Made by a program: the position numbers and the translations under genes. Source: Gemmatimonadales bacterium (GTDB lineage Bacteria > Gemmatimonadota > Gemmatimonadetes > Gemmatimonadales > GWC2-71-9). Taken from it: a DNA stretch of 64,000 nucleotides. Every line of letters starts with the position of its first letter. Position 1 is the first letter of the stretch. Of this stretch, positions 2 to 32,568 are shown piece after piece. The notes beneath the pieces are model-generated. The model had not been told where the DNA came from. It saw only the letters and a program-made list of their open reading frames with translations, and did no database searches. The stretch spans positions 32,001 to 96,000 of the forward strand of contig JBBQFH010000007.1 in NCBI GenBank assembly GCA_038321865.1. Reading direction: 5' to 3'.

Positions 2-1738
2 ATCGGCCAGCTCGGATTTCAGTACGATTTCACCTCGTTCCCGGTGGACTCGGAGCTGATCAGCAACTATCGGAGCAACCTCCTGGGGAGCAGGCGCTCG
101 CCGTACGATCTCGACAATACGGCCCAATACCAGACCATCTCGCAGTATCGCACCAACGCCTACGGCGCCACCGGGTTCGTCGAGGGCGGCGGCCCGGTCG
201 GCCGGCTGACGCTGGAGCGCGAGCACCGGACAGTTGCCGCCGTCACCGCTGAATGGCCGGTCAGCCGGAACAGCCGCTTCCGGACCGGCGGAGAGCTCAC
301 CCGCTATTCGGTCGATCACTATTCGCATCAGCTCACCAGCCAGGCATTCTCCGATGTGTACCACGTCGCGCCGACCGCATTGTCGCTGTTCGCCGAAGAC
401 CAGTTTCAGTATGGGAACGTCACCTTCGCGGCGGGTGTGCGGTATGACCGGTTCTCGTCGAACGCCGATCGCGCATTCGACCTCGACACCGTTGCGTCCA
501 GCGCCACCTTCAACACATACCTGCCCTTCCCGCGCATCACCAGCTACGAGGGGACATTCCAGGGCCAGCCGCTCGCGATCACTGTGCGGGACCAGCGGCG
601 GTCCGCCGTGTCGCCGCGATTCCGACTCGCGTACGGGACGGGCTCGGCCACCGAAGTCCGGATCGGATATGCCCGCCAGGCGCAGCTGCCCGACTTCGAC
701 CAGCTGTATGCGGGCATCAACACCGACATCGCAATCACGAATTTCGGCCAGACGTTCGGCGCGAGTATGGGACTGCAGAAGGCATGGATCGCGGAAGCCG
801 GCGTGCGCCGCCGGCTCAGTCCCGCGACGACGGTGGACGTGGCGGTGTACGAGCGCCGGAACCTGAACGCCATCCAGGACCGGATCGTGCAGCGCCCCGA
901 CCCGACGCGGCACAACTCGATCGCCGGGCTCCGGCAGTATGCCGATTCCGGCAACCTCCGCTATCGGGGCGCCGAGATCACGCTGTCCCGTCGCGCGGGC
1001 CCGCTGACCGGGCTGGCCGCCTACGCCTATCAGAAGAGCACCGGTGTCGGCCCAACCCAGCCACCGATGGCCGCCACCCGGCCGCACACGTTTACGGCGG
1101 CACTGGCGCTCACCGTCCGGAGCACGGCGGCCTACGCCGGATTCCGCATGGCGAGCGGCACACCGTACTCGAACTGTGAGACGTTGGGCAATGAGAGTGT
1201 GCTGAGCAACCAGGTCTGTAACCAGGGCCTGCTGGTACTCCTGGGCGCGCGCCTTCCCACCACCCGTCAGCTCGATCTCCGCCTCACCCAGTCCATCGGC
1301 AAAGGCACTCGTCCGATCACCGCGTACGTTGACGCCCGGAACCTGTTCAATACGCGCAATGTGGTGCTGGCCTATATCGTCACCGGGACGACGACCAGCC
1401 CGCTCGAGCAGCAGCTGGTATTCGCCGGAGACAGCGCCAGTCTGGCCAATGAGGCGACCGCCAACTCGATCTACCGCGCCGATGGCTCGGTCGACTTGAC
1501 GTTCGCGGGAGCGGGAACCGGCGGATGCGCCGGGTATGTCTCCAATGGCGGAAGTCCCGCGGCGCCAAACTGCATTTCACTCATCCGTGCCGAGCAGCGG
1601 TTTGGCAATGGCGACGGCGTATTCGATCTGGCGGAGCAGGGCCGTGCATCGAGCGCGCGATACGCCGTCGCCCGCGGCGAACAGGCGTTCACCACCGCAC
1701 CGAGGCGCGTCCGGATCGGCATCCAGGTCGGCCTCTAG
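2..1738 (+). CDS. TonB-dependent receptor, C-terminal part (5' truncated by window edge)
   Basis: Frame open from position 2. TBDR barrel motifs AGVRYDRF, VSPRFRLAY, LDLRL...YVDARNLFN, and terminal strand PRRVRIGIQVGL. Confidence 0.85.
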   Translation: MGQLGFQYDFTSFPVDSELISNYRSNLLGSRRSPYDLDNTAQYQTISQYRTNAYGATGFVEGGGPVGRLTLEREHRTVAAVTAEWPVSRNSRFRTGGELTRYSVDHYSHQLTSQAFSDVYHVAPTALSLFAEDQFQYGNVTFAAGVRYDRFSSNADRAFDLDTVASSATFNTYLPFPRITSYEGTFQGQPLAITVRDQRRSAVSPRFRLAYGTGSATEVRIGYARQAQLPDFDQLYAGINTDIAITNFGQTFGASMGLQKAWIAEAGVRRRLSPATTVDVAVYERRNLNAIQDRIVQRPDPTRHNSIAGLRQYADSGNLRYRGAEITLSRRAGPLTGLAAYAYQKSTGVGPTQPPMAATRPHTFTAALALTVRSTAAYAGFRMASGTPYSNCETLGNESVLSNQVCNQGLLVLLGARLPTTRQLDLRLTQSIGKGTRPITAYVDARNLFNTRNVVLAYIVTGTTTSPLEQQLVFAGDSASLANEATANSIYRADGSVDLTFAGAGTGGCAGYVSNGGSPAAPNCISLIRAEQRFGNGDGVFDLAEQGRASSARYAVARGEQAFTTAPRRVRIGIQVGL

Positions 1739-2538
1739 CGTTCGGGCGACTCGGACCGGCCTTCGTTCAATCGGCGGCCGAGCCGCGTGACCAGCCCTCT
1801 CGGCAGGAGGCGCGACGCGGTGACGGCGAGCCGGTTGGTCGCCCCCGGGACCACCAGCCGCTCACCCCGGAGCATTCCTTCGTAACCCGCGCGTGCCACC
1901 GCAGCCGCGCTCATCATGGGCTCCCGGCCGAGGAATCGCGCCGCACGCATGCGCGCGCGCGCCGCGAAGCCGGTCGCGGTCGGCCCCGGACAGAGCGTCG
2001 TCACGGTCACGCCCGAGCCATCCAGCTCCTCCGCAAGCGCCTCCGACCAGGAGAGCACGTACGCCTTGGTCGCGTAGTACACCGACATGTACGGCCCGGG
2101 CTGGAATGCGGCGACCGACGCGACGTTCAGGATCCGGCCTGCGCGGCGGGCCAGCATCGCGGGGAGGAGTGCCTTGGTCAGTTCCGTCGGTGCGGCGACG
2201 TTCAGCTCGATCATGGCCAGCTCATCGGCCAGCTTCGTTTCCGCAAATGCGCCGCCGCCGCCGAACCCCGCGTTGTTGACCAGCACACCCAGGTGAATGG
2301 CGGAACGGTGCAGCGTGTCGAGCAGTCGGCGCCGTTCGTCGGGCCGTGCCAGATCGGCCGGGATGCTCGTGACCGACGGCGCACCGATCGCCTGCAGCTC
2401 CGCGGCCGCGGCGGCCAGCGGCGCTTCGCGACGGGCGACGATCACGAGATCGGAGCCGCTCCGGGCGAGGCAGCGCGCCAGGTCCAGTCCAATGCCGGAT
2501 GAGGCACCGGTCCCCAGCGCGCCCGGCCGCGAGCTCAA
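1735..2538 (-). CDS. Short-chain dehydrogenase/reductase (DltE-like)
   Basis: TGASSGIG Rossmann motif, NNAGFG, catalytic YYATK. TTG start overlaps the upstream stop (TTGA). Confidence 0.9.
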   Translation of the reverse strand: MSSRPGALGTGASSGIGLDLARCLARSGSDLVIVARREAPLAAAAAELQAIGAPSVTSIPADLARPDERRRLLDTLHRSAIHLGVLVNNAGFGGGGAFAETKLADELAMIELNVAAPTELTKALLPAMLARRAGRILNVASVAAFQPGPYMSVYYATKAYVLSWSEALAEELDGSGVTVTTLCPGPTATGFAARARMRAARFLGREPMMSAAAVARAGYEGMLRGERLVVPGATNRLAVTASRLLPRGLVTRLGRRLNEGRSESPER

Positions 2539-2792
2539 GGCGACCGGATGCGACGCGGCGCGCCGCCAGGCCGGGGCACAATGGCGGCGAGCGCCCGGAC
2601 CTCAAGGAGCGAGGCCCTGAGGGCGCGCGCGAGTGCCGCGAGCAGGAGCAGCAGCGAGCTGACGAGCGTGGAGCCGCTCCGGGGTGAAGGCCGCCGGCCG
2701 TGTCCGCGAGGCAGCAACACCCGCGGCGAATGCGAGGCGGAATAATCCGTTCGGGCCCGACGTCGCGCCAGTGGGCGCGCTGGATCCGTCAC
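2535..2792 (-). CDS. Small hypothetical protein (85 aa, one hydrophobic segment)
   Basis: GTG start overlaps the upstream stop (GTGA at 2789-2792) and its stop overlaps the SDR start. It fills the gap exactly. Hydrophobic run TLVSSLLLLLAALARAL. Confidence 0.45.
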   Translation of the reverse strand: MTDPARPLARRRARTDYSASHSPRVLLPRGHGRRPSPRSGSTLVSSLLLLLAALARALRASLLEVRALAAIVPRPGGAPRRIRSP

Positions 2793-3388
2793 GGCGACCG
2801 TGCCGCCAGCGCCAGGTCGACGGTGCGGCGCCGCTGCACCATCGCGTTCTCCGGACCAGGAATTACGTAATCCTGCCAGTCCCCCCACGTGGCGACCAGC
2901 CGAAGGGGGCCGGCACCGGCCGGGACATCGAACCGCAGCCTGGTCGTGTAGCTGTCACCGGCGTTCAGCGGATCCTGCAGCGCGCCGCCGAGCGCGGCAT
3001 ACTCCTTCCCCGCGGCATCGCGGGCTCGAACGCGCAGGTGCGAAGGGTATTCCGGCTCCCGCCTGGCGTCGCTCCAGACTCGAAGCGTGACGGTCAGGCC
3101 CGTGTCCGATTTGACACCTACCACTGCGATGTGGAGGTGACAATCGAAGCCGCAGAATACCAGCGCGTCGCCAGGGGCAAGGCTGCGCCGAGGCGTCAGG
3201 ACCGGCCCCAGCAGCACGGCTGCTGCATAAAGGATCACCCACCCGCCGACGGCGGCCGCCGCGGACGCCGCCACGTGTCGGCGGTTGGTCGCCAGCCCGA
3301 TGACGATCACGATGGTGCCGACGGCGAGAATCGCCAGCGTGCCGAAGAACGCCAGCACACCGAGCATGCGCAGAAGCAGGGCGAGCAT
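2789..3388 (-). CDS. Membrane-anchored protein: two N-terminal TM helices plus beta-rich (DUF4352/Ig-like) domain
   Basis: ATG at 3388 with GGAGG RBS and TGATG overlap with the uppS stop. Motifs LTVTLRV and LNAGDSYTTRLRFDVP; CGFDCH. Confidence 0.7.
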   Translation of the reverse strand: MLALLLRMLGVLAFFGTLAILAVGTIVIVIGLATNRRHVAASAAAAVGGWVILYAAAVLLGPVLTPRRSLAPGDALVFCGFDCHLHIAVVGVKSDTGLTVTLRVWSDARREPEYPSHLRVRARDAAGKEYAALGGALQDPLNAGDSYTTRLRFDVPAGAGPLRLVATWGDWQDYVIPGPENAMVQRRRTVDLALAARSP

Positions 3389-4167
3389 CAGAACCTCCGG
3401 GGGTGGGAGAGGGCGACGGCAGGTTCGGGACGACCGGACGGCGCGGGTGAAGACGGCACGCTCCCGAAGCGGCGTTGCCGCCCGCGGAAGTCGTCCAGCG
3501 CCGCGGCGAGATCGCGCGGTGCGAAGTCCGGCCACATACGGGTCGTGAAGTGGAGCTCGGCGTAGGCGCATTCCCAGAGCAGGAAATCGCTGAGGCGTTG
3601 CTCGCCGCCGGTGCGAATGAGCAGGTCGACGGGGGGTGTGGTGCCGCCGTGGTCCACGATCGACAGGAGCCGGCCGAACGATTCGCGCGAGGGAACCGTC
3701 TCGGGCGGCAGGCATTGCGCCGCGCGCAGGATCGCGTCGCGCGCCGAATAGTCCATGGCGATCCGGAGGTGCAGGCGGTGGCCGCCCGCGGTCGCCCGTT
3801 CTGCCGCTTCGACGGCGCGCAGCACCGGGCCGGGCATTCGGTCGCGCCGGCCGATGACGTTGAGCCGGACTCCGGTCACCACGCAGCGGGCGGCTTCGGC
3901 GCGCAGGTATTCCCGAAAGAGGCGCATCAGCCGCGCGACCTCGCGCTCGGGTCGCTGCCAGTTGTCCGCCGAGAAGGCGAAGAGCGTGAGCGTGCCGATT
4001 CCCTCGCCGGGCGCCGCCTCGACAGTGCGCCGCACCGCGGCCGCACCCTCCCGGTGGCCGGCCGCCCGGGGCAGCCCCTGGGCCGTCGCCCAGCGGCCGT
4101 TGCCGTCCATGATGACGCCCACGTGCAGTCCCGCCGGCGGCAGCGGGCGACAAGTGCTTTGTTTCAT
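3388..4167 (-). CDS. uppS: cis-prenyltransferase (undecaprenyl diphosphate synthase family), variant copy
   Basis: [55 protein letters not shown] at 4167 with GAGGAG RBS at 4175-4180. Confidence 0.9.
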
Positions 4168-4171
4168 AAAG
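4151..4171. promoter_or_regulatory. Putative operator copy 2 (CAAGTGCTTTGTTTCATAAAG), overlapping the uppS start codon
   Basis: 15/21 identical to 5204-5224. CTTT-N7-AAAG palindromic core; AT-rich in a GC-rich context. Confidence 0.65.
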
Positions 4172-4197
4172 TTGCTCCTCAAAAAAAACCTCGGCGC

Positions 4198-4584
4198 TCA
4201 GCGCTCGCGCGTCGCCCGAATCAGTGCTTCCATGTGGTCGAGATACCGGGCCAGCGCGGTGCAGCCTTTGGCGCTGAGCCGGTAGACCGTCCGCGGCAGG
4301 CGGCCCTCGAACGACTTGGTGCAGGTGATGTAGCCCGCGTCCTCCAGCTTGCGGGCGTGCACGCTGAGGTTCCCGTCCGTGGTGTCGAGCAGCCGCTTGA
4401 GGTCGTTGAACGCCAGCGACTCGTTCACGGCCAGCGCGCTGACGATCGCCAGGCGCATCCGTTCGTGAATCAGCCGGTCCAGGTCCAGGGCGCCGGCCTC
4501 GCGACCTGGGCCCTTGACCCCCTTCAGCGGCGCCGGTCCAGGTGCGGCGCCGACCTTCCGAAGCGCGCTCGATCTAGCCACCAT
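4198..4584 (-). CDS. Winged-helix transcriptional regulator (ArsR/MarR-like, HTH_34 type)
   Basis: LDRLIHERMRLAIVSAL...FNDLKRLLDTTDGNLSVHARKLEDAGYI...KSFEGRLPRTVYRL. Confidence 0.9.
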   Translation of the reverse strand: MVARSSALRKVGAAPGPAPLKGVKGPGREAGALDLDRLIHERMRLAIVSALAVNESLAFNDLKRLLDTTDGNLSVHARKLEDAGYITCTKSFEGRLPRTVYRLSAKGCTALARYLDHMEALIRATRER

Positions 4585-5179
4585 GCCTCTGTGCGATCAC
4601 GAGTCCAAAAATCACGTGCAGTGCGCCGAAGCCGAACGCCATCCACGCGGTGCCCCCCGCTGGGAACAGGAGCGCTCCGATCCCGACGCCCATGAAGCAC
4701 AGCCCCATTAACGGCACGATCCGGATGGAGAATGCTCCGCCGGTCACGACGCCCGTCCCGTAGAGCAGGAGCCACATCCCCGGGAGGTCGGCGCGGAGGC
4801 CGCCGCGGTACAGCACGACCGTCATCACCGCCCCGACGACGATCGGCGGCGTGTAACTCAGCAGGAACCGCCGGGCCGGCCGGGTGAAGATCGCGGCGCT
4901 GGCCCGACGGGACTTCCGGGCCAGCGCGATCCAGCCCACCGCCGCCGCCACGATCGCTTCCGCCATCCACACCAGCAGCCAGCTGTGCGCGTCACGCCGC
5001 GTGGCCGCCACGACCGAGGCCGCGAGCGCCGTCACCCCCATCGCCACCCCGCCCCACCCCGGCACTGCCGTGAACGCGGTCGCCCGCTCCATGGTGTCGC
5101 GGATGAAGGAGAGGTTGTCCATCGCCCGCGCGTGGAGCGCGGGCGGGTCCTCGGGAGGCTGCTGGTGCGGCAGGGCCAT
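4574..5179 (-). CDS. Conserved-looking multi-TM membrane protein
   Basis: About six hydrophobic segments; N-terminal AMDNLSFIRDTMER; overlaps the regulator start. Confidence 0.8.
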   Translation of the reverse strand: MALPHQQPPEDPPALHARAMDNLSFIRDTMERATAFTAVPGWGGVAMGVTALAASVVAATRRDAHSWLLVWMAEAIVAAAVGWIALARKSRRASAAIFTRPARRFLLSYTPPIVVGAVMTVVLYRGGLRADLPGMWLLLYGTGVVTGGAFSIRIVPLMGLCFMGVGIGALLFPAGGTAWMAFGFGALHVIFGLVIAQRHGG

Positions 5180-5203
5180 GAGCTCCGCGGGCTAGGGGTG
5201 CAT

Positions 5204-5244
5204 CAAGTACTTTGCAGTGTAAAGCTGCAGGCCCCGCGGCGCAA
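5204..5244 (-). promoter_or_regulatory. sigma70-like promoter (TTGCGC-N17-TACACT) overlapped by operator copy 1 (5204-5224)
   Basis: Minus-strand -35 at 5244-5239 and -10 at 5221-5216 with a 17-nt spacer. The operator CAAGTACTTTGCAGTGTAAAG covers the -10 and the predicted start site. Confidence 0.6.
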
Positions 5245-5252
5245 GCCCCCGC

Positions 5253-5699
5253 TCACGCCGCCAGCGCTGACGTGCACTCGGGGCAGCGGCTCGCCCCCAC
5301 GGGAATCGGCATTCGGCAGAAGGGACAGTCCTTCGTGGTCGGGGCCGCCGCGGCCTCGGCTGGGCGCAGACGGTTGGCCGCGCGCACCACCATGAACACC
5401 GCGAACGCCACGATCAGGAAGGTCACGATGTTGTTGATGAAAGCGCCGTAGTTGACCGTAACGGCCCCGGCGGCCTGTGCGTCGGCGAGGGAGGCGTACG
5501 GTGGGGCCGTTTTCCCTTCCTTCAGCACCGTGAACAGATTCTTGAAGTCCACCCGCCCCAGCGCCAGTCCGATCGGAGGCATGATCACGTCGTCGACCAT
5601 CGACTTGACCACGGTGCCGAATGCGCCGCCGATGATGATGCCGATAGCCAGGTCGAGCACGTTGCCCCGCATCGCGAACGCCTTGAACTCCTTGAACAT
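5253..5699 (-). CDS. mscL: Large-conductance mechanosensitive channel with C-terminal CxxC-x10-CxxC
   Basis: MFKEFKAFAMRGNVLDLAIGIIIGGAFG; YGAFINNIVTFLIVAF. Confidence 0.97.
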   Translation of the reverse strand: MFKEFKAFAMRGNVLDLAIGIIIGGAFGTVVKSMVDDVIMPPIGLALGRVDFKNLFTVLKEGKTAPPYASLADAQAAGAVTVNYGAFINNIVTFLIVAFAVFMVVRAANRLRPAEAAAAPTTKDCPFCRMPIPVGASRCPECTSALAA

Positions 5700-31547: not shown

Positions 31548-32568
31548 ACTCGGGCTGGCCGACCTGCTGGCCGGGGTGCTCGTCCTCGCGCTCAATGCCT
31601 ACGTGCTGCTCGCCGGCGCCGACTTCGGAGGCGGGGTGTGGGACCTGTTCGCCTCGGGACCCCGCAGGAGCCGCCAGCGGGCGCTGATCGCCGACGCGAT
31701 CGGGCCGATCTGGGAAGCGAACCACGTCTGGCTGATCCTGGCGGTGGTGCTGCTGTTCACCTGCTTTCCGGTGGCGTTCGCGAGGCTCACCACCGTGCTG
31801 CACGTGCCGCTGGTGCTGGTGCTGGTCGGGATCGTGCTGCGCGGCTCCGCCTTCACCTTCCGCTCGTACGACAGCCGGCGCGACACGGTGCAGCGCCGCT
31901 GGGGCGCCGTGTTCGCGAGCGCGAGCGTGGTCACGCCGCTCCTGCTCGGCGTGGCGGTCGGCACCGTCGCGACCGGGCGCGTCCTCGCGCCGGCCGGCGG
32001 CTTCCGGGCGGCGTACATCGGCCCGTGGGCCACGCCCTTTGCGCTCGCCGTCGGGCTCATGACGCTTGCGCTCTTCGCCTTCCTCGCGGCGGTGTACCTC
32101 ACCGTCGAGGCCGGCCGGGGCGAGCTGGCGGACGACTTCCGTACCCGTGCGCTGTGGGCCTTCGCCGCAACCGTCGTCGCGGCCCTGACGGCACTCGCCT
32201 TCGCCAAGGCCGACGCGCCGCGCATGCACGCCGCGCTCACCCGCTCGGTCTGGGCGCCGCCGCTGCACTCCGGTGCGGCGCTCGCGGCCATCGGGGCCTG
32301 CTGGGCGCTCTGGTCGCGGCGGTTCCGGCTCGCGCGCCTCGGCGCCGGCGCGCTGGTGTCGCTGGTGCTCTGGGGCTGGGCGGTGGGACAGTACCCCTAT
32401 CTCGTGCCGCCTGATCTGACGATCGCCCAGACGGCTGCGCCCGCGACGACGCTGCGCTTTGTCGCGCTGGGCCTCGCCGCGGGCGGAATGATCCTGGTGC
32501 CGTCGCTGCTCTACCTGTTCCGGATCTTCAAGAGCGAACGCGCGCTCCGGGCCCGGCCCACCGACTGA
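31540..32568 (+). CDS. cydB: Cytochrome bd-type oxidase subunit II
   Basis: GADFGGG, IGPIWEANHVWL, LRGSAF; overlaps the cydA end. Confidence 0.93.
   Translation: MRELGLADLLAGVLVLALNAYVLLAGADFGGGVWDLFASGPRRSRQRALIADAIGPIWEANHVWLILAVVLLFTCFPVAFARLTTVLHVPLVLVLVGIVLRGSAFTFRSYDSRRDTVQRRWGAVFASASVVTPLLLGVAVGTVATGRVLAPAGGFRAAYIGPWATPFALAVGLMTLALFAFLAAVYLTVEAGRGELADDFRTRALWAFAATVVAALTALAFAKADAPRMHAALTRSVWAPPLHSGAALAAIGACWALWSRRFRLARLGAGALVSLVLWGWAVGQYPYLVPPDLTIAQTAAPATTLRFVALGLAAGGMILVPSLLYLFRIFKSERALRARPTD

Follow-up and report, generated by a model that had tools for sequence, protein, structure and literature searches.

The stretch analysed here (the window) comprises 64,000 nucleotides (nt) of a Gemmatimonadales bacterium, positions 32,001 to 96,000 of contig JBBQFH010000007.1 in assembly GCA_038321865.1, and forms part of contig C7 of the 3.4-Mb assembly (69% G+C; genome label G000). 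On its minus strand lies a run of six reading frames around a second gene for a cis-prenyltransferase, uppS2, which is the subject of this study. In the direction of reading, these are the gene of a 201-residue membrane protein with no named family (4574-5179), the gene of a winged-helix regulator of the Pfam family HTH_34 (PF13601; 4198-4584), uppS2 itself (3388-4167), a gene for a beta-rich, weakly DUF4352-like protein with a two-helix membrane anchor (the beta gene; 2789-3388), a frame of 85 codons (2535-2792) and a gene for a short-chain dehydrogenase/reductase (SDR; 1735-2538; adh_short in Pfam, 155.8 bits). The membrane and regulator genes overlap by 11 nt, whereas uppS2 and the beta gene meet in TGATG, the beta gene and the 85-codon frame in GTGA, and that frame and the SDR gene in TTGA. 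For uppS2, whose longest open reading frame begins at a TTG at 4182, the ATG at 4165-4167 was used as the start. Upstream of the membrane gene, the minus-strand operator 1 (5205-5225) has the form RCTTT-N7-AAAGT-ACTT, its last bases overlapping a -35-like TTGATG (5201-5206). A second copy on the same strand, operator 2 (4152-4172), covers the uppS2 start codon and is probably a roadblock site; it is preceded by a run of eight T (4181-4188) that ends 8 nt before it and is directly followed by the ribosome-binding site GAGGAG (4175-4180). An earlier reading of this DNA without database searches (the sequence-only reading) had described the six frames, most of them overlapping, and the two operator copies, and all of these are present.

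Comparison with relatives revealed that the conserved core is a unit of three genes, encoding the membrane protein, the HTH_34 regulator and the PRK14839-type UppS, with changing cargo, and not the six-gene system as first proposed. In loci chosen by the enzyme alone, the membrane and regulator genes stand directly upstream of the variant uppS in 41 of 41 Gemmatimonadota loci (the window included), 14 of 17 Acidobacteriota loci and 16 of 18 loci from a genome collection. Similarly, among 80 metagenome loci picked only by enzyme motif, both genes were found upstream in 34 of the 38 with enough flank for this count and the regulator gene in 44 of 49, and the operator was present in 34 of the same 38, with no occurrence in 222,693 nt of other flank. 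Of 40 Gemmatimonadota loci, 16 have DUF4153 downstream and 5 have the beta gene, and other loci carry sugar transferases, B12 radical SAM proteins or CreD, the last being recurrent (L145, L195, L240, L294, L520). The beta protein has no significant Pfam or NCBIfam family, 29% of the members of its Atlas cluster carry DUF4352, and its gene is preceded by an operator of its own in three loci (L378, L381, L385); it is, like DUF4153 and CreD, variable cargo of the regulon.

The last two frames lie outside the conserved system. The 85-codon frame, which had been counted as a gene, has a codon score of -0.17 (versus +0.10 to +0.28 for the six other frames scored) and no Pfam match. The relative L115 has a small membrane frame at this place, to which the 85-codon frame aligns as a truncated copy with a score that none of 500 shuffles reached (23 of 500 did so in the same alignment with L111 and 41 of 500 with L112). 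Most likely, then, a small membrane gene and its leader have decayed to leave this remnant, and its origin as a DUF4153 remnant was rejected. The SDR is a local neighbour, found near a variant uppS in only four other loci, all of close relatives (L001, L111, L112, L115), and the suggestion that it modifies the prenyl product thus finds no support. The SDR frame opens with TTG and reads ALGTGASSG where its relatives read ALVTGASSG (window 2500-2538); these oddities and the decayed frame beside it may be a sign of local decay. On the other flank, mscL (5253-5699) ends 27 nt before operator 1 and encodes an MscL with a zinc-ribbon-like CxxC...CxxC tail at its C-terminus; mscL precedes the module in 9 of 59 clustered loci.

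UppS2 belongs to an enzyme clade that is already modelled. It scores 361.6 bits against NCBIfam NF011412 (PRK14839; cut-off 334), and its structural model has the UppS fold (Foldseek E 8e-23 to Escherichia coli UppS 1x07, TM-score 0.76, with a range of 0.76-0.80 across UppS structures). The cis-prenyltransferase features are all present, namely the catalytic Asp/P-loop, FS..NW.R, R..R.S, Glu213 and the C-terminal RXG, to which we assign their usual roles by assumption. D21, S66, N69, R72, E76, R185, R191, S193, E204 and the RRFG arginines do not vary among 67 members of the clade, and we take these positions, mapped by alignment, to be catalytic as in E. coli UppS. The motifs named in the sequence-only reading, including RLSDFLLWE, were confirmed. 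In E. coli numbering, the clade carries E73D (82/89), N144D (86/89), G146S (87/89), N203D (89/89) and Q208E (89/89), where N203D and Q208E defined the 89-member set (the unpublished L167 included), whereas 66 canonical sequences mostly retain E, G, N and Q. Viral cis-prenyltransferases (L208-L221) share the N144D/N203D pair yet fall outside the clade, which suggests a compensating pair, and the full three-residue signature was found in 0 of 22 viral loci. In UppS2, helix 3 is without an insertion, and A69, V105 and L137, which presumably bear on chain length, are retained. Separately, a fusion of about 500 residues between UppS2 and a ferritin-like domain recurs in P0271-P0286, and this domain stands alone after uppS2 in L273.

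The view of UppS2 as a second, separately evolving enzyme outside the housekeeping context was also borne out. A canonical uppS lies elsewhere in the genome (C1:202977-203684) after rpsB-tsf-pyrH-frr, the locus expected of a housekeeping copy (frr-uppS-cdsA-dxr), and its product is 44% identical to UppS2. In a quick tree of 105 proteins, the 35 variants fall together on a single branch (SH-aLRT 99) that excludes this housekeeping enzyme. At E<=1e-90, 301 Gemmatimonadota yielded 124 genomes with the clade, 66 of them above the cut-off; as members are known below that threshold, the true number is at least this high. Among 201 Acidobacteriota it was found in 22, including one atypical case and one unpublished genome (G329). 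Three matches appeared in 301 alphaproteobacterial genomes, of which one is a true member; the other two are canonical by motif, one of them sitting in frr-uppS-cdsA (L182), and were dropped from the clade counts. In the class of a Steroidobacteraceae genome, the variant was present only in this centre genome among 201. Mobility was rejected: of 55 plasmid records with a match, a single one held the variant, and the membrane protein was found on none. One plasmid of Aureimonas (L151:4938-9126; NZ_CP006369.1) carries the membrane gene, HTH_34, uppS2, a linalool dehydratase/isomerase-domain protein and DgkA, and is a named, cultured example with both operators. In L189 (5015-6636), uppS2 with its own operator is followed by IspH (LytB), with no membrane gene or regulator.

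The regulator matches HTH_34 at 89.9 bits, and no further copy was detected in the genome. As to an ArsR-type identity its scores are divided, with 25.6 bits for HTH_5 (cut-off 22) and 28 bits for NF033788, below its cut-off of 55. It is likely to be an autorepressor, and we predict with high confidence that the operator is the repressor site of this HTH_34 protein. The membrane protein consists of an N-terminal helix and six predicted membrane-length helices (model pLDDT 84) and has no Pfam or NCBIfam match. Its best Foldseek hit has an E of 0.88, and its best VIA Z, 9.3 to a designed helical barrel, is within the range of common bundles; such a lack of a clear fold match is not proof of a new fold. 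The N-terminal helix (LxxIRxxMER) is among the most conserved parts of the protein, which is a candidate sensor and the likely partner of the regulator. Complex prediction with two regulator chains and the membrane protein gave a median score of 0.28 against a mark of 0.32, a value that weighs on binding in neither direction.

The membrane protein is more widespread than the enzyme, being present in 55 of 61 genomes of the order and 26 of 81 Bacteroidota, and its family counts 2880 clusters at 50% identity. In 16 Bacteroidota loci, the membrane gene carries the same operator, with a regulator frame following it in 15 (one confirmed as HTH_34); cargo there includes DUF4153, CreD (L520 among them) and a sugar transferase, and no uppS. 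The operator is dispersed as well. The 3.4-Mb genome holds three exact and four one-mismatch matches to the pattern, and an exact match was found in 41 of 61 genomes of the order, compared with one match for the reversed control. Remote copies precede DUF4153, the beta gene, an outer-membrane efflux operon, an ABC ATPase, a sugar transferase with exosortase, polysaccharide-export proteins, CreD and small membrane proteins. Together these targets make up an envelope regulon that includes uppS2, and its cargo (the carrier synthase, CreD, efflux, carrier-using sugar transferases and, in the Aureimonas plasmid, DgkA) points to the envelope or the carrier cycle. A third copy in this genome (C5:28399-29019) lies downstream of a TTGACG and before a 188-residue membrane gene, relatives of which follow DUF4153 in L124 and L128. 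In addition, contig C100 (1-2375) carries a second MBL-rhodanese, mscL (68% identical), YbjQ-like and operator locus, which ends at the contig edge right after an ATG and has a promoter with clean 17-nt spacing, unlike the copy in the window; it is either a paralogous locus or a contig from a related organism.

Operator 1 takes the general form RCTTT-N7-AAAGT-AC-TTGACA, its 3' end running into the -35 hexamer, which in 96 relatives is TTGACA in 42 and TTGACG in 11. Operator 2 shares this core, and the uppS2 ATG lies in frame inside it in 50 of 85 loci; an internal forward promoter at operator 2 was rejected, since its start would fall downstream of the ATG in 50 of 85 loci. The presence of operator 2 follows that of the housekeeping gene: with a weight matrix trained on operator 1 only, it was found in 77 of 91 variant-bearing genomes with housekeeping uppS versus 1 of 39 without (two of 132 genomes, G088 and G283, were unparsed; they retain the housekeeping gene, and operator 2 was seen in each), whereas operator 1 is present in both groups, in 77 of 81 and 35 of 37, respectively (13 loci being too short). 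Operator 2 is therefore likely to shut the spare enzyme off, since it is nearly always missing where housekeeping uppS is gone and operator 1 is kept, which supports the negative-control logic that the sequence-only reading had seen in the operators. Several genomes with both enzymes and no operator 2 are close kin of sole-enzyme genomes, as expected if operator 2 was lost first, although the tree is unrooted and does not fix the order.

No cis-prenyltransferase other than the variant was found in 39 of the 132 Gemmatimonadota genomes that carry it (38 by PF01255; G034 by a separate search). All 30 sole-enzyme genomes checked have frr directly followed by cdsA in unbroken sequence (no N), with no uppS between them, and mraY is kept in 5 of 5 tested; by comparison, 22 of 22 variant-bearing genomes of other phyla keep both copies. 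On the gene tree, the sole-enzyme state requires 14 changes, at least 8 of them forced by well-supported branches, and takeover, that is, displacement of the housekeeping uppS by the variant, therefore likely happened several times. Cell-wall synthesis requires a polyprenyl carrier, and an enzyme that is the sole cis-prenyltransferase in 39 genomes likely supplies a working one; on these grounds, UppS2 very probably makes usable polyprenyl diphosphate. The proposal that the paralog replenishes or alters the carrier is accordingly narrowed by the sole-enzyme genomes and their retained mraY, which favour replenishing over altering.

An A/T tract is tied to operator 2, and not to the start codon, in three phyla. 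Of 59 loci with a run of at least six T, 54 have 8 nt between the end of this run and operator 2, and this gap holds whether the ATG lies at +5 (29/31), at +8 (14/15) or elsewhere (11/13). The tract is absent from all 96 operator 1 sites, a run of this kind is present in 1.7% of 200-nt windows elsewhere, and a tract was found in 6 of 50 loci without a called operator 2. Among 86 loci with the regulator and operator 2, 66 have six or more T, five an A-rich AnT3 form, two T5 and 13 none. In Bacteroidota, the tract occurs at 12 of 13 second operators versus 1 of 16 first operators, TTT occupies -11 to -9 in 13 of 13 second operators, and about half of the tracts are A-rich. A hairpin terminator before the tract was rejected (67 tracts, mean z -0.62, 18% under -1.5), and an intrinsic terminator scan of the window called none at the tract position; the T8 of the window supplies the run of at least six U of an intrinsic terminator, and the stable hairpin is missing. 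A role as translation enhancer is disfavoured, as the tract follows the operator even where the likely start lies 24-82 nt further on (L115, L194, L255, L302). The tract may instead release stalled polymerase through a weak hybrid or tighten repressor binding through DNA shape; we hold each of these only tentatively and about equally, since the existence of A-rich forms weakens a pure U-tract reading and fits DNA shape as well.

Taken together, we somewhat favour a three-gene switch in which HTH_34 would repress its own promoter and block read-through into the spare UppS, with the membrane protein predicted to relieve this repression under envelope stress. The HTH_34 protein would repress at operator 1, where leakage would give basal amounts of membrane protein and regulator. 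At operator 2, the regulator would probably stop RNA polymerase and cover the uppS2 start codon, while operator 1 would permit a basal level of membrane protein and regulator, and by the same step operator 2 would have to be lost before uppS2 could act as a housekeeping gene. By analogy with SdpI/SdpR, stress on the envelope or on the pool of carrier may lead the membrane protein to capture the repressor, a step that we rate as an even call; the spare enzyme and the cargo would be made only on derepression. A much broader extension appears doubtful: that the unnamed membrane family senses the carrier pool or envelope and controls an HTH_34 repressor in Gemmatimonadota, Acidobacteriota and Bacteroidota, that a hairpin-less, protein-gated terminator, made up of the A/T tract 8 nt ahead of a bound operator, splits the operon into basal sensor and inducible effector parts, and that loss of this gate repeatedly let a stress uppS replace the housekeeping gene.

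Several observations weigh against the switch. The pair of membrane protein and regulator is found in the absence of uppS2 as well (genus g53; Bacteroidota), and the signal therefore need not be the carrier lipid. The single promoter of the sequence-only reading stands only as to its -35-like TTGATG at operator 1: a sigma-70 scan called no promoter near operator 1, the hexamer 17 nt beyond TTGATG is GCTCAT and overlaps the ATG of the membrane gene, and no -10 is recognisable. When corrected for kinship on the gene tree, the association of operator 2 with housekeeping uppS points one way and is not significant (median p 0.25; eight independent pairs on well-supported branches, with means of 3.4 in the same direction, 0.1 opposite and 4.5 tied). 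Moreover, 14 of 91 genomes keep housekeeping uppS yet are without operator 2, and the sole-enzyme genome G244 retains operator 2 and the tract. The 13 of 86 operator 2 loci without a tract count here too, as do the 5 of 86 with tracts of the A7T3 type, from which no U-rich RNA is expected, and likewise about half of the Bacteroidota tracts. Finally, "sole" refers to the outcome of a profile search, permissive in its first round, of metagenome-assembled genomes that are 92-100% complete, with frr covered in 30 of 39.

Other explanations were weighed against the same evidence. It is unlikely, to begin with the strongest, that the regulator itself senses a soluble ligand such as an isoprenoid precursor and that the membrane protein is an effector and not the sensor. 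The membrane protein indeed has no recognisable sensor or enzyme domain, and many other targets of the operator are small membrane proteins of no assigned function; however, the membrane gene lies directly upstream of the regulator gene, often overlapping it, in three phyla while other cargo changes, and its conserved LxxIRxxMER helix likewise weighs against this explanation. Less likely still, UppS2 could make a chemically different carrier, of another chain length or open to reduction, methylation or oxidation, which withstands antibiotics that bind the carrier or is used in a specialised glycan pathway. The clade-wide changes near the active site (E73D, N144D, N203D and Q208E) would fit, as would fusions or neighbours of the geranylgeranyl-reductase family (P0288, P0308, L235) and of B12 radical SAM (P0287, L010, L191, L234, L247, L295), the ferritin-like domain (P0271-P0285, with an AurF match on P0285 only), linalool dehydratase with DgkA (L151) and IspH (L189). 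On the other hand, no second cis-prenyltransferase was found in the 39 genomes, no such modifying gene lies in the window and none recurs in 40 wide Gemmatimonadota loci, helix 3 and the three residues named above are as in canonical enzymes, and the N144D/N203D pair is shared by unrelated viral enzymes. For other lineages, in which the enzyme has prenyl-modifying fusions or neighbours, a modified-lipid role is conceivable.

That the regulator is an activator beside the -35, with operator 2 a leftover duplicate or titration site, is highly improbable: operator 1 does end 2 bp before the -35 hexamer, a placement seen with class II activators, but the -35 is near consensus (TTGACA 42/96), the site elsewhere covers the spacer or -10 or lies downstream, and operator 2 is nearly absent exactly where uppS2 must be always on. 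A repressor fits better than an activator because the position of the operator relative to the promoter varies, from just upstream of or overlapping the -35 to over the spacer or -10 (stand-alone L007, L033) and downstream of TTGACG (C5). In Bacteroidota L512-L524, the left half of operator 1 is often TAnnTTTG, which we take to be the -7 promoter element of this phylum, with a TTG about 24 nt upstream.

The proposed switch resembles known systems in part. The SdpR/SdpI operon of Bacillus subtilis (PMC2910880) likewise pairs a six-helix membrane protein with a winged-helix regulator and offers autorepressor sequestration as a model. However, none of 85 membrane-protein members has an SdpI Pfam match and the profile match to an SdpI-family protein has a probability of 0.1%, and the present system differs further in its HTH_34 regulator, dispersed regulon and internal second operator. 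CreD is shared as cargo with the CreBC regulon (PMC4689548), whereas creD here follows the membrane protein/HTH_34 pair and operator instead of a two-component system. Natural roadblocks by PurR, GalR, CcpA and CodY are cited in PMC4132739, and this paper together with PMC10310618 covers LacI as well and indicates that upstream sequence could affect roadblocking; there, too, a repressor site lies inside the transcription unit, downstream of the promoter. What differs here is a conserved A/T tract at a constant distance of 8 nt ahead of the site, shared by three phyla, and no natural U-tract-plus-operator design was found by title or abstract in the open-access literature searched. UppS2 shares fold and catalytic residues with housekeeping UppS (E. 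coli IspU) and passes the NF011412 cut-off, and this model covers the enzyme only; the regulon context, the separate clade and the repeated housekeeping replacement are absent from the literature searched. The enzyme clade is thus already modelled, and of the regulon no account was found in open-access literature (subscription journals and supplements being outside the search).

The locus thus belongs to a real and widespread repressor regulon, coupled to a membrane protein, that seems not to have been described and that has a known enzyme clade among its cargo. The supply of undecaprenyl phosphate limits cell-wall synthesis and is targeted by drugs, and to our knowledge little is known about its regulation in non-model Gram-negative phyla. 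The regulon offers a candidate sensor family, large in clusters and without a Pfam name, and a precisely defined candidate operator. The fixed spacing of tract and operator offers a way to ask if roadblocks in bacteria are combined with an element that acts by release or through DNA shape. In addition, the regulon provides a natural experiment: in several lineages an inducible paralog has been left as the only gene for an essential enzyme, and one cis-element went missing alongside the takeover.

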